A stretch of 26,626 nucleotides of DNA, taken from an uncultured Clostridia bacterium. Lineage in GTDB: Bacteria; CAYTYR01; UBA6262. The position numbers and the translations under genes are program-made. The notes beneath the pieces were generated by a model. It was not told where the DNA came from. It saw nothing but the letters and a program-made list of their open reading frames with translations, and did no database searches. Shown here in pieces: positions 1,217-12,336 of the stretch; position 1 is the first letter of the stretch, and the number at the start of each line of letters is the position of its first letter. The stretch spans positions 1-26,626 of the forward strand of contig CAZFDO010000001.1 in assembly GCA_964517965.1 (NCBI GenBank), given 5' to 3'.

Positions 1217-2386
1217 TTGAAAAAGGGACTATCTATACTCATATTAAGTGTTTTGGCATTAGGCGCCTGCGCGACCAGCCGGCCTAATATCAAGGATTAT
1301 GCCAATAAAGGTAAAGAAGAAAAAGAAATTACCGAAGTGGTTCAGGCTGAAGGCCTGGTAGCGGTGCTCAACAATGATATTCTGGATGCCAAAAAGCGCG
1401 CCTTAGGCGAAGCGCAGCGCAATGCCGTAGAAATGACCGTAGGAGTATATGTCAACGCTGCTACCCGGGTAGAAAAAGCCATTATGGTGGATCAGCAAAT
1501 TCTTTCTAAGACCAATGGGTATATTAAAAAATATAAAATCCTCTCTGAAGGACGCGAAGGCGATTTTTATAAAACCAAGATCGAAGCCCTGGTAAAAATT
1601 GAAGCAATCAACAAGGATCTCAACATCCTCGGGTTGACTGCTCCGCCAACGCCGGCTACCACCAATTTGCGGATCGGGGTAGTGATCATGGATCGGATAG
1701 ACGGCGTACCGGACAATGACGGGGTCAGTGAAGTCACTCTGGGCGACCGTTTACTAAGCCTGCAATATAAATTAATAACGGTTAACGAACTAGCCCAGGC
1801 AGCTAAGAACTTGAATGCCGACGATTTCCTGAACAACCTGGATCAGCAGAAAAAAGTTGGAGAAATGGTCAAAGCCGATGTTTTGATCATTGGCAAAGCT
1901 ACTGCTTCCTTTAATACAGATCAAGGACTCGGGGGAATGATCTCTTACCGCGCCAATATTTCATTTAAGGTGCTCAAGATCAAGCAGTCAGCTCTGATCT
2001 ACAGTAATTCATTCTCCAGCGGCGGAGTAAGCACTACCCGGGAGGCAGCAGGAAAAGAAGCCTTAAAACGCGCCGCGTCCATTGCTGCCGAAGATCTAGT
2101 CAGGGTATTGGATCAGCGCTTGAAAGCATTTAATTTTATTTCCGTCACGGTAAAGAATGTTTCTACCCTGAACCAATTGAACGCCGTGATCAAAGGGCTG
2201 CAGAACATGATCGAAGTAAAATACACCCAGACGGAAAATTTTGGGAATGGGGTAGCTAACATCAAGGTAGGAGCAGAGATTGAAAATATTCCCTCCATTG
2301 CCCAAAAATTAGAGGCCAAAGTCGAAGGAATCAAAGTAAAAGTGTCCGCAGTCACCAATAGTAGCATAGCGGTAGAAATACAGTAG
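1217..2386 (+). CDS. Lipoprotein with FlgT N-terminal-like domain and CsgG/TolB-N-like middle domain (389 aa)
   Basis: TTG start, AGGAGG at 1204-1209, lipobox LGA-C; VQAEG...AKKRALGEAQRNAVE...GVYV...ILSKTNGYIKKYKILSE is typical of FlgT_N/LPP20-type domains. Confidence 0.7.
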   Translation: MKKGLSILILSVLALGACATSRPNIKDYANKGKEEKEITEVVQAEGLVAVLNNDILDAKKRALGEAQRNAVEMTVGVYVNAATRVEKAIMVDQQILSKTNGYIKKYKILSEGREGDFYKTKIEALVKIEAINKDLNILGLTAPPTPATTNLRIGVVIMDRIDGVPDNDGVSEVTLGDRLLSLQYKLITVNELAQAAKNLNADDFLNNLDQQKKVGEMVKADVLIIGKATASFNTDQGLGGMISYRANISFKVLKIKQSALIYSNSFSSGGVSTTREAAGKEALKRAASIAAEDLVRVLDQRLKAFNFISVTVKNVSTLNQLNAVIKGLQNMIEVKYTQTENFGNGVANIKVGAEIENIPSIAQKLEAKVEGIKVKVSAVTNSSIAVEIQ

Positions 2387-2504
2387 TACAGTCGCTAGTT
2401 TCTAGTAACTAGTCGCTAGTAAAAACAAAGAAACAGGCTCTTTATCGAGGCCTGTTTCTTTTATTATTAACCAGCTACCAGCGACTAGCGACCAGTAACT
2501 GCAT
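2386..2504. repeat. Heptamer-periodic inverted-repeat element A
   Basis: Left units gtacagt cgctagt ttctagt aactagt cgctagt (2386-2420); right units accagct accagcg actagcg accagta actgcat (2470-2504), approximate reverse complements. Confidence 0.85.
2427..2461. terminator. Bidirectional intrinsic terminator between convergent transcripts
   Basis: AAAGAAACAGGC / GCCTGTTTCTTT 12-bp stem, A-run on the left and T-run on the right, between convergent genes. Confidence 0.85.
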
Positions 2505-6482: not shown

Positions 6483-6566
6483 TGCGAGTTTCGGGTTAAC
6501 GAGTTTCGGGTTAATTGATTATAAAAAATCTAAACTCGGGACTCGCCAACTCGTAACTCGTCAACT
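6483..6566. repeat. Heptamer-periodic inverted-repeat element B, probably acting as terminator between convergent genes
   Basis: CGAGTTTCGGGTTAA twice (6485-6514); right arm aaactcg ggactcg ccaactcg taactcg followed by a T-run. Confidence 0.8.
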
Positions 6567-8265: not shown

Positions 8266-8386
8266 ATACAGTCGTTAGTCGCCGGCTGCCAGTCGCTAGT
8301 AAATAACAGATAAATAAACCTTCTATACCAGTGACCAGAAACTAGTACCCAGCGACCGTATTTAAACTAGCGACCAGAAACTGCCT
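8266..8386. repeat. Heptamer-periodic inverted-repeat element C
   Basis: Left atacagt cgttagt cgccggc tgccagt cgctagt (8266-8300); 26-nt spacer; right accagtg accagaa actagta cccagcg accgtat (8327-8361); extra units 8366-8386 overlap the mnmA stop. Confidence 0.85.
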
Positions 8387-9482
8387 TTATGATTGTTCCT
8401 CCGCCAAGAACTTTATTCCCTTGATAAAATACTACTGCCTGCCCCGGTGTTATAGCCCATTGTCCGGAGCTAAATTCCACCTTGACTTTATCCCGGCCAG
8501 CCGGTGAAATAGTACAAGCTGCTGCTTTATGCGCTGAGCGGATCTTAGCTTTGGCGCTTATTGGTTTTGATAATTTCTTTATAGTTATAAAATTAATCTT
8601 GCCAGCTAATAATGTATTCCCGTAAATATCCTGTTTAGGGGCAATTACTAAAATATTGCGTCTCTGATCGATCTCTTTTACATATAAAGGATGCGCCGCA
8701 GCTAGCCCCAATCCTTTGCGTTGGCCGATTGTATAAAACGCGATCCCCTTATGTGTTCCTAATACCTTTCCTGCTTTATCCGTTATGCCTCCGGACTTAA
8801 AATCCGTCTGCATCCTTGTTTTAAGAAAGCGATGATAATCATTATCAGGGATAAAGCAGATTTCCTGGCTCTCTGGACGATTGGCTGTAGCTAGTTCACA
8901 ATCCCGAGCTAAAATACGCACCCTGTCCTTGGTATAGATCCCTAAAGGAAGCAGGATGTGGGCTAATTGCTGCTGGGTCATAGTATATAAAAAATATGAT
9001 TGGTCCTTTTTGGCGTCTTTGGCTTTTAACAAGTGGTATCTTTTGGTTCTGCGGTCATGCTTTATTTGCGCATAATGCCCGGTAGCTAAATAATGCGCCC
9101 CTAAACTTTCGGCTTTTTTCAGGAGATAATCAAATTTAATTAAATCATTACAACGGATACAGGGGTTAGGCGTTTGCCCGGCCAGATATTGACTACAAAA
9201 AGGGATGATAACTTTTTTTTCAAACAACTCGCGGCAATTCATTACATAATGGGGAAGACCCAGCTTGGCCGCTACTCTTTTGGCGTCTTCCACCGCGCCG
9301 ATGCCGCAACAGCTGGTTTCAGATTCAGCGACCTGCTCCCTCGGCCATAACTGCATGGTCAAGCCGATAACTTCATATCCCTGCTTTTGCAGTAGCGCTG
9401 CGGCCACAGATGAGTCCACTCCCCCGCTCATCGCTACCGCTACCCTAATTTTATTCTTTATTTCTTTTTGAAGAATAGCCAA
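8367..9482 (-). CDS. mnmA: tRNA 2-thiouridylase MnmA
   Basis: AMSGGVDSSV, TPNPCIRCN, ATGHYA, KDQSYFL, ESQEICF, YTIGQRKGLG, AITPGQAVVFY; 371 aa. Confidence 0.95.
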   Translation of the reverse strand: MAILQKEIKNKIRVAVAMSGGVDSSVAAALLQKQGYEVIGLTMQLWPREQVAESETSCCGIGAVEDAKRVAAKLGLPHYVMNCRELFEKKVIIPFCSQYLAGQTPNPCIRCNDLIKFDYLLKKAESLGAHYLATGHYAQIKHDRRTKRYHLLKAKDAKKDQSYFLYTMTQQQLAHILLPLGIYTKDRVRILARDCELATANRPESQEICFIPDNDYHRFLKTRMQTDFKSGGITDKAGKVLGTHKGIAFYTIGQRKGLGLAAAHPLYVKEIDQRRNILVIAPKQDIYGNTLLAGKINFITIKKLSKPISAKAKIRSAHKAAACTISPAGRDKVKVEFSSGQWAITPGQAVVFYQGNKVLGGGTIIKAVSGR

Positions 9483-9949
9483 TTATTTTTATCTTCCCCT
9501 GGTTTTAATTTTACCAGATAAAATAAACCTTTTAATTTTTTTCCAATAATTTCCAGGCTATAGGCCTTTTCACTTTTCTCCAGCAATTGATAGGTTCCCT
9601 GATCCCAGATCTCTACCGTACCGGCGCCATATTCGCCGGTCGGGATTGTGCCTGAAAACTTTTCATAACCAAGCGGGTGGTCTTCCACTGCTACAGCCAG
9701 ACGTTTCACTATCGGGTCACTCGATGGTTCTTTCGGCACAGCCCAACTCTTCAATACCCCGTCCATCTCCAGCCGCAGGTCATAATGCAAATGGCTCGCG
9801 TTATGCTTCTGGATCACATAAATCATTCTTTTACTGCCATCTGCCATCCGCGACCCGCCAACGAACTTTGGCGGGGGCCCGCCATCCGTCCCCACTGGTT
9901 CCTTGGTCTTCTTAAAATCCCTTTTTTTCTTATATTCTTCCAAAACCAT
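9458..9949 (-). CDS. Stand-alone DNA ligase D 3'-phosphoesterase (PE) domain protein
   Basis: EEYKKKRDF, QKHNASHLHYDLRLE, LKSWAVPK, AVEDHP, GEYGAGTVEIWDQGTY; 163 aa, no ligase or polymerase domain. Confidence 0.9.
   Translation of the reverse strand: MVLEEYKKKRDFKKTKEPVGTDGGPPPKFVGGSRMADGSKRMIYVIQKHNASHLHYDLRLEMDGVLKSWAVPKEPSSDPIVKRLAVAVEDHPLGYEKFSGTIPTGEYGAGTVEIWDQGTYQLLEKSEKAYSLEIIGKKLKGLFYLVKLKPGEDKNNWLFFKKK
9854..9875. repeat. GC-rich palindrome inside the LigD-PE coding sequence
   Basis: CCCGCCAA-CGAACT-TTGGCGGG, 8-bp perfect stem; GCCATCCG direct repeats at 9843-9850 and 9881-9888. Confidence 0.65.
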
Positions 9950-9987
9950 CGCAATTATTCCTCAACATAAAAATCCACAACAGATTA

Positions 9988-10323
9988 AGTATTCAGGTAA
10001 CTGTAATATTTTTTCGCTAAGGTGTCGATTTTCAGGGCGCCAAAGGTCTTTTGACAACTCATGATGCTTCAGCCAGAGGCTGATCCGCCAATCTTTTAGG
10101 CGGAAAAACCGACAATGCCGCTCAAAAATATTAGCAGTTCCCTGATGCTCTACCCAAAGCCAAACGCGGCCGCTGATGCCGTGTAGAAAACCTACGGATG
10201 CTTGAGTTGGCACGGACTCTTTTCCTCCCGCCTGGCGGGAGAACTCAAGCGAGTAAGAGCGCGTTTTCCTCGCCGGGGAAAACGACGCGTTTTTCGGAAC
10301 GGCGCAGCGTGACAGTGAGGCTA
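9988..10323 (+). ncRNA. Unclassified ~340-nt highly structured element (ncRNA candidate or non-autonomous mobile element)
   Basis: Two multibranch domains with long-range helices found by eye (9988-10033 with 10103-10149; 10171-10182 with 10299-10309) and several internal hairpins; wobble pairs are G-U on the plus strand. Family not recognised. Confidence 0.5.
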
Positions 10324-10336
10324 TACCTTATATCTT

Positions 10337-10612
10337 TCAAGGAAAGAACTTTAAATAGCTTGGGCAGAGTTTATTTAAGACACATTTTGGGCATTTAGGT
10401 TTTTTGGCATCACAGATCTTCCGGCTAACGTTCTTATATTTATTAAAAACTACCGGCGTTACTTTATTAACCGTCACATCCGTAGATTGGGCCGAAAGGA
10501 TCGTCGCTACCAGCAATTCCATTGGATTAGAATAATTCAGCGCAATTTTTGCCTGCGGATATTCCCGCTGTAGTATATTAATTATTTTACCAGTTTTATC
10601 TTTGGCCCTCAT
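10337..10612 (-). pseudogene. nth: Endonuclease III with large in-frame internal deletion (91 aa)
   Basis: Nth N-terminus (LNYSNPMELLVATILSAQSTDVTVNKVTP) joined directly to the C-terminal Fe-S motif C-x6-C-x2-C-x5-C; HhH motif and catalytic Lys/Asp absent. Confidence 0.8.
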
Positions 10613-12242: not shown

Positions 12243-12336
12243 AAGACGCTTATGGCCAATGGCTTATGGCGTATGGCAGAAGCATTGTCTTCTTTGCTTT
12301 TGCCATTAGCTATATGCAATATGCTATATGCGTTCT
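12243..12336. repeat. Heptamer-periodic inverted-repeat element E between feoB and the DtxR-FeoA gene
   Basis: Left ttatggc caatggc ttatggc gtatggc (12250-12277); inner stem agaagca/tgctttt; right gccatta gctatat gcaatat gctatat (12302-12329). Confidence 0.85.

Follow-up and report, generated by a model that had tools for sequence, protein, structure and literature searches.

What occupies the largest non-coding gap in the window, i.e. in the whole 26,626-nt stretch of DNA analysed here? The genes around this gap (9950–10336, 387 nt) all lie on the minus strand, and most of it is taken up by a highly structured stretch at 9988–10323. A sequence-only reading had described this stretch as one unrecognised two-domain element of ∼340 nt, sitting in the only large gap, between two DNA-repair genes, and folding best antisense to its operon. 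It had offered three options: a new large ncRNA, an orphan guide-like RNA of an IS200/IS605-type element, or a folded non-autonomous element. We compared the window's own assembly (G000; 1.71 Mb, 247 contigs, 45% GC) with five congeners (G001–G005), which together make up the six genomes of the genus set. The collection searched holds nine species-level genomes for the whole phylum, and the lineage is a poorly known one from groundwater.

The description of the neighbouring genes as two DNA-repair genes is correct on one side only. Downstream lies a gene for a stand-alone LigD 3′-phosphoesterase (LigD-PE; 9458–9949, minus strand; Pfam LigD_N, 6.3e-38), which has orthologues in all five congeners (5/5); its relatives outside the genus share ≤60% identity and are taxonomically scattered. 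The upstream 91-aa gene (10337–10612, minus strand) is only a remnant of endonuclease III (nth). It aligns to residues 1–63 and 185–213 of the 214-aa congener protein, the difference being an in-frame internal deletion of ∼121 codons (residues 64–184). The HhH motif and the catalytic core (HhH-GPD core) are missing from the remnant, and the C-X6-C-X2-C-X5-C cluster loop is retained. In the congeners nth is intact (214–242 aa); G000 itself has just one more HhH-GPD gene, a paralogue on contig C82 with 25% identity. The deletion junction (∼10424) is covered by an exact 185-nt contig of a groundwater metagenome run. Two ORFs of 83 and 66 aa that run across the structured stretch had no Pfam match.

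The proposed pairings were borne out: all the quoted strings (10/10) were found in place, and the arms of the inner hairpins are present. The 336-nt stretch folds at −126.2 kcal/mol on the plus strand (z −4.46 relative to dinucleotide shuffles) and at −123.8 kcal/mol on the minus strand (z −4.00); no shuffle was as stable on either strand, and coding control sequences gave z-scores of −0.3 to −2.0. Searches against Rfam 15 agreed with the label "unrecognised", as the window produced no match at the gathering score, and a threshold of E ≤ 10 for 9800–10500 on both strands also produced none. The statement that the element folds best antisense has to be limited to domain 2 (−72.2 kcal/mol on the plus strand vs −63.9 on the minus strand), because domain 1 is more stable on the minus, i.e. 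the sense strand (−58.6 vs −50.7 kcal/mol on the plus strand).

The stretch is, however, not one element. A search of G000 with the 387 nt gave 29–30 matching pieces, many of them at contig ends, and the two domains turned out to be two separate repeat families, each of which occurs elsewhere without the other. We call them A (domain 1) and B (domain 2). A new large ncRNA in the form of a single two-domain gene is unsupported, given that the two families are independent of each other and that domain 1 has no preferred orientation relative to genes. We concluded securely that 9988–10323 consists of two dispersed intergenic repeats lying side by side and not of one single-copy RNA gene. The long stems that had drawn attention to the stretch are the inverted ends and the internal palindromes of A and B.

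Element A extends over 9993–10145 on the plus strand. Its left end (9993–10034, ∼42 nt) begins with TCAGGTAACTG and its right end (10105–10145) finishes in CAGTTCCCTGA; the interior carries the hairpins TCAGCC/GGCTGA (10069–10083) and TCCGCC/GGCGGA (10084–10104). The two ends are imperfect inverted repeats of ∼40 nt with the terminal 11-mer consensus TCAGG(T/G)AACTG, and left and right ends are conserved as distinct from each other (GGT vs GGG). Exact terminal 11-mers occur 12 and 15 times in G000, where <1 is expected, and ∼30 termini there have the extended end sequence. Complete copies are 150–230 bp long and have the same ends, and their interiors differ from copy to copy (contigs C56, C57, C87, C64, C59, C50 and C164). 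A is a mosaic MITE-like superfamily whose interiors are interchangeable hairpin modules. All complete copies in G000 (11/11) are intergenic, mostly 8–40 nt from the nearest gene end; in the window, the LigD-PE start lies 44 nt from the left terminus. Relative to co-directional neighbours, three copies point one way and five the other, which amounts to no preference. A weak outward-facing promoter-like match in the left end (10000–10028, minus strand; TCGACA, 17 nt, TACAGT) points at the LigD-PE gene. It agrees with the consensus at 9 of 12 positions and, with 4 such sites vs 1.9 expected in shuffles, is not evidence of function.

The near-palindromic 11-mer CAGTTCCCTGA at 10135–10145 does double duty: A ends in it on the right, and the long form of B has it as its left terminus. 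It is followed on the plus strand by a spacer (10146–10157) that is conserved among the G000 copies (window, C31, C23 and C43); congener copies have a different spacer of 18 nt, conserved among themselves. This junction of terminus, spacer and B recurs on C23 and C43 of G000 and in at least eight congener copies. The B core (10158–10323, plus strand) is a multi-helix structured repeat of 165 nt, and the covariance model R1 scores the window copy at 187.9 bits. Its outer helices pair 10159–10184 with 10296–10322; further inside, also on the plus strand, the helix GCTTGAGTT/AACTCAAGC encloses CTCCCGCC/GGCGGGAG, and CGTTTTCC/GGAAAACG forms a hairpin. B was found in three settings: with the 11-mer on one or both sides (contig C31), joined to an A-type end through the conserved spacer (11 of 24 copies), or solo, in which case it has no terminal inverted repeats. 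Its GC content is 59%, vs 45% for the genome.

The B alignment comprises 20 copies from six genomes over 164 positions. Its consensus of 45 pairs in seven helices agrees with the pairing scheme proposed earlier, and standard pairs fill 98.6% of the cells. Both sides of a pair have changed in a compensatory manner at 10 of the 45 pairs; one pair, for example, is U-A in 10 copies, C-G in 5 and A-U in 5. We counted 51 compensated cells, as against 15.1 ± 3.8 in shuffled alignments, and none of the 500 shuffles reached 51. When partners were slid by 1–3 columns, at most three compensatory pairs were left. The single B copy of the sister genus retains the helices with different sequence. These data give solid grounds to regard the B fold as kept by compensatory substitution across two genera. 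No conserved ORF was found in the alignment of B copies, because indels between the copies break the frames.

The B interior is nevertheless not fixed, as some copies keep the ends and have unrelated modules in place of the interior, and others have 20–30-nt hairpins inserted. A pattern scan picked out a putative terminator-like hairpin followed by a T5 run inside B (10262–10294, plus strand; a consensus match only), and the T-run is invariant across the copies (columns T134–T137 of the alignment). No conserved promoter-like box precedes B(+): the left flanks of solo copies differ, and the G000 copies have no −10-like box.

B also has a preferred position and a preferred strand. The reverse complement of B begins within −4 to +18 nt of the stop codon of a same-strand ORF (≥60 aa) in 17 of 29 copies, among them the one in the sister genus, and in 5 further copies such an ORF ends within 115 nt. 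In the window, the TGA stop of the nth remnant is 13 nt from the B match and 15 nt from its conserved end GCCTCAC. As rc(B) starts right after the stop codon, the transcript of the upstream gene must run into it. Yet it is the opposite strand, B(+), antisense to the upstream gene, that folds more stably in 25 of 28 copies; the difference averages −8.8 kcal/mol in energy and −0.94 in z. Counting wobbles on the alignment points the same way (G-U at 9 pair positions vs A-C at 4), a count that is weak alone, two of the G-U positions being near-fixed and maybe unpaired; the per-copy energies are the clearer strand test. Covariation, stop-codon anchoring and the antisense-favoured fold are solid observations.

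Both repeats are restricted to a narrow lineage. BLAST with the whole region gave ∼20 matches in each of four congeners and 1 in G005, and none in the sister genus or in 34 more distant genomes. The covariance model built from the B alignment detected 5, 6, 5, 5, 9 and 1 copies in the six genus genomes and one diverged copy in the sister genus, and no B in two other genomes of the phylum.

Comparison of orthologous sites showed that some of them are without an element. At the nth/LigD-PE junction, G004 and G003 have only a 45–70-nt spacer, G002 has a single A-type element, and G001 has B and A with three termini, in the order and orientation seen in the window. In G001 and G002, nth terminates (ATC AGG TAA) within the inserted element, whose terminal 11-mer TCAGGTAACTG provides the stop codon (loci L097 and L098). 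G005 has an unrelated 1.1-kb insert at this junction, with a PIN-domain toxin gene and a PIF1-like helicase fragment (L136, G005:C64:12400–13700). The occupant of the sites C87 and C50 varies among species between an A-type element, a B-type element and heptamer-periodic inverted repeats, and at C50 G003 has a YhcG/DUF1016 nuclease gene (L135, G003:C30:1250–3650). The large inserts of G003 and G005 were considered as transposases and rejected on their gene content. Intergenic spacers thus compared appear to be sites of repeated gain and replacement. Public runs that hold the window locus are only DNA metagenomes (groundwater and biofilm); among their contigs, which break inside the repeats, no allele without the elements was found.

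A flanking direct repeat was no better than random at 10 of the 11 complete copies. The missing duplications are not decisive, because old duplications can decay. The sole exception is C87 (G000 C87:5092–5346; G004 L131), where an A-type element with a 20-nt B-end fragment is bracketed by a direct repeat of 12–15 nt, GTACTTAAAA(T/A)AAGG. The upstream gene ends inside this repeat, which covers its final codons and its stop; G001 and G003, both of which are without the element, have the repeat only once. We found no recent transposition event and no precise pair of an empty and a filled site.

Among the transposase families searched, Y1_Tnp is the only one present in all six genus genomes (6/6, 2–8 matches each). 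Of the DDE-type families, DDE_Tnp_1 was found in 2/6, DDE_3 in 1/6, DDE_Tnp_4 in 0/6 and rve in 2/6 of these incomplete assemblies; none of the four is in G000, and the copy-rich genomes G000, G002 and G004 are without all of them. No pair of termini >600 bp apart encloses a transposase in G000, and the DDE loci of G003 and G005 have no A/B termini. The TnpB-type domain (PF07282) was absent from all six genomes (0/6), the search controls being positive.

G000 encodes four Y1_Tnp proteins (contigs C24, C71, C158 and C37), the best NCBIfam match of which is REP_Tyr_transpos at 59–68 bits, below its 80-bit cut-off. Three of them are paralogues of 330–338 aa with an N-terminal Y1 (IS200-like) domain and a C-terminal DnaA-C-like HTH (C24:3565–4581, C71:3698–4693 and C158:320–1312; L121–L123). 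Inverted TAGGGGACG boxes stand on both sides of each of these genes, a TTGACA promoter-like site precedes each of them, and C26 and C80 carry partial copies. The fourth is a RAYT-like gene of 217 aa (C37:4469–5122; L124) with the hairpin GTTCCACC...GGTGGAAC on both sides. This hairpin, GTTCCACCTC(C/G)GAGGTGGAAC, occurs only at these two places in G000, which makes it a RAYT-style arrangement without an amplified REP family.

The stretch thus combines two intergenic repeats that are non-coding, present in many copies and confined to this lineage. We consider it likely that both are non-autonomous mobile DNA, moved by Y1 transposases. A and B would spread into the short intergenic spacers of a compact genome and turn over there. 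The likeliest route would be that a transposase acting in trans moves them as folded single strands of DNA, in the manner of REP/REPIN and IS200/IS605-type elements, because target-site duplications are missing, the fold covaries, the strands are asymmetric, DDE transposases are near-absent and a Y1 (HUH, RAYT-like) transposase is present in every genus genome. Once inserted, the elements would necessarily be transcribed together with the upstream gene and form its 3′ tail, where they would probably be passive stem-loops that affect the stability of the mRNA 3′ end or read-through. Of the three options offered earlier, the folded non-autonomous element comes closest: the multi-copy state, the restriction to the genus and the presence/absence differences at orthologous sites fit it, and for the mobilisation itself we have to infer.

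We infer the Y1 link in particular because duplications are missing, structure is conserved, the strands are asymmetric and alternatives are absent, and not because of any direct association. None of the Y1 genes examined in G000 adjoins A, B or the CCGCC-loop-GGCGG hairpin described below. Common flanking sequence was considered as a connection and rejected, the Y1 gene flanks being unrelated to A/B. Copy number does not track Y1 presence, because the counts in G005 (five Y1 matches, one B copy) and G006 (one Y1 gene, one B copy, no A) disagree, and co-occurrence of Y1 and elements across G005–G008 was uninformative. The better-folding B strand is antisense to the adjacent gene; wherever gene and replication run in the same direction, it does not coincide with the lagging-strand template, the one that IS200/IS605 elements use. 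Against ongoing mobility, the shared occupancy of sites could reflect old insertions together with recombinational exchange of modules. We treat the mechanism of mobilisation, like any RNA role of the repeats, as a hypothesis.

B may have a role at the level of RNA or of single-stranded DNA, because its fold is supported by covariation and is better on the antisense strand. It is possible, though we would put it forward only tentatively, that B is an RNA element selected by the host: either an independently transcribed small RNA on B(+), which would converge on the upstream gene from its 3′ side, or a domesticated 3′-UTR module (terminator, insulator or stabiliser) after stop codons, the repeat spread being only the way in which B arrived. 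Such selection would account for seven helices kept by compensatory change in two genera, for a strand asymmetry that consistently favours B(+), for the invariant hairpin and T5 on that strand, and for a short fixed distance to the stop codon at ∼15 independent sites, the sister-genus copy included. On the other hand, no conserved promoter lies upstream of B(+), and a transcript that ended at the internal T5 would be too short to form the covarying outer helices. Interiors that are swapped while the ends are kept, as well as small inserted hairpins, are the behaviour of a selfish repeat, and the copy number varies from 1 to 9 among the genus genomes.

It is rather doubtful that A, together with those B copies that lie between the same termini, represents classical MITEs of a DDE transposase whose autonomous IS is lost or was left unassembled in the MAGs, the stems being the inverted repeats to which the transposase binds. 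The structure of A suits this explanation well, with its 11-nt near-perfect and ∼40-nt imperfect inverted repeats, left and right distinct (GGT vs GGG), its length of 150–230 bp, its intergenic location without coding capacity and its empty orthologous sites; an assembly in 247 contigs with repeats at contig ends could also have hidden an IS. But 10 of 11 copies have no flanking duplication, paired termini >600 bp apart enclose no transposase in G000, and the four DDE Pfam families are absent from the very genomes that are rich in copies (G000, G002 and G004). A DDE enzyme would also have no need of the covarying internal helices of B.

We think it fairly unlikely that B is a structured nucleic-acid family new to science that acts antisense to the preceding gene. 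It would do so either as a convergent small RNA or terminator of antisense transcription at gene 3′ ends, or as the folded single-stranded DNA substrate of the proteins that combine a Y1 transposase with a DnaA-C HTH, i.e. as the 165-nt branched recognition element of a new REP-like system. That the stretch is an orphan omega RNA or the remnant of an IS200/IS605 end, as the guide-like RNA option would have it, is highly improbable: it is highly structured, 150–200 nt in size and without flanking duplications in a genome with Y1 transposases, but the genus has no TnpB-type domain in any of its six genomes, Rfam gave no match, and the element exists in many copies, sits at the stop codons of genes and is mosaic inside, with Y1 gene flanks that are unrelated to it.

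A and B are accompanied by smaller repeats. The motif CCGCC-(3–14 nt)-GGCGG was counted 212 times on both strands of G000 (∼106 sites) vs 14 times in shuffled sequence (∼7 sites). These hairpins are found nested in A and B (e.g. window 10084–10104) and solo, with recurring loop classes such as TCCGCCTCAGGCGGA (8 copies). Mini-hairpins of 20–25 nt, CTGCCTGCCGGCAGGCAG (5 sites in G000) and TCCGCCAACGCTTTAGTGGCGGA, lie inside some A/B copies and not others (L147 in G002:C55; G000 C56:6908, C107:62 and C43:8390), and may be very small elements nested in the larger ones. The LigD-PE gene itself contains a palindromic repeat of 20 nt, CCGCCAACGAACTTTGGCGG (window 9855–9874, minus strand), and identical copies were found on contigs C17 and C62. 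Read in frame, it encodes PPKFVGG in the N-terminal linker of the protein, and the congener proteins are 2–12 residues shorter exactly there. A mini-palindrome seems to have inserted itself into the coding sequence without breaking the frame, as is known of the Rickettsia palindromic elements. Heptamer-periodic inverted-repeat elements occupy other gene junctions of the window (2386–2504, 6483–6566, 8266–8386 and 12243–12336; loci L132 and L133). At the C50 site of G002 and G005 the heptamer unit is ATCAGGN, with the letters of the A/B terminus ATCAGG, and the heptamer elements of the window end in CAG(T/A)AACTG; the heptamer and A/B families may share a recognition motif.

This analysis removes a candidate large ncRNA and puts in its place a documented repeat system of a poorly known groundwater lineage. 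The system is a mosaic superfamily with a common near-palindromic terminus, in genomes that are nearly without DDE transposases yet always have RAYT-like Y1 transposases. Its repeats supply stop codons and 3′ tails to genes, and they account for many of the contig breaks in the assemblies. If the Y1 link is true, the REP/RAYT idea would extend to much larger, branched elements.

Among the known systems, bacterial MITEs are short, intergenic and stably folded and have inverted ends; examples are Correia of Neisseria, RUP of Streptococcus pneumoniae and QMITE of Coxiella (PMC10969869). A and B are likewise small (150–230 bp), non-coding, multi-copy and intergenic, with very stable stem-loops and some empty orthologous sites, and A has terminal inverted repeats as well (TCAGGTAACTG...CAGTTCCCTGA). 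They differ in that 10 of 11 copies have no target-site duplication, no related IS or DDE transposase was found, their sequence is GC-rich and not AT-rich, and their interiors are interchangeable modules.

REP, BIME and REPIN sequences with their RAYT transposases (PMC3116915, PMC3337134 and PMC3733652) are similar in being extragenic palindromic units arranged in mosaics at gene 3′ ends without duplications; every genus genome has a RAYT-like Y1, and an abundant short GC-rich hairpin, CCGCC-loop-GGCGG, is embedded in A and B. However, the RAYT-like genes here are not flanked by A/B repeats, and no GTAG/CGTC tag is evident by eye at the feet of the CCGCC hairpins. A REP is a 20–40-nt palindrome or a simple doublet, whereas A has long inverted ends and B is a branched structure of 165 nt.

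The repeats resemble IS200/IS605-derived elements and omega RNAs in that solo B needs no inverted repeat, duplications are lacking, the single strand is structured and the orientation relative to genes is biased. They differ in that the genus has no TnpB and the better-folding B strand is antisense to the genes, and no conserved 4–5-nt target could be defined beside one end.

BOX, RUP and SPRITE of Streptococcus pneumoniae are modular, co-transcribed repeats with terminator-like modules and are enriched downstream of genes (PMC3049150). Here too, variable modules lie within conserved ends, predicted RNA structure is extensive, co-transcription with neighbours is expected, one module has a terminator-like stem with a U-rich tail, and copies are enriched downstream of coding sequences. 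There is, however, no sequence relationship and the phylum is different; moreover, the B fold is backed by compensatory changes, is better antisense to the upstream gene and is anchored ≤18 nt from stop codons. No single family can take in A and B, because MITEs would call for a duplication and a partner IS, REP sequences for a repeat-flanked RAYT and IS200/IS605 for TnpB. A and B are new interspersed repeats that resemble MITEs, BIMEs and BOX elements and stand beside these described families.
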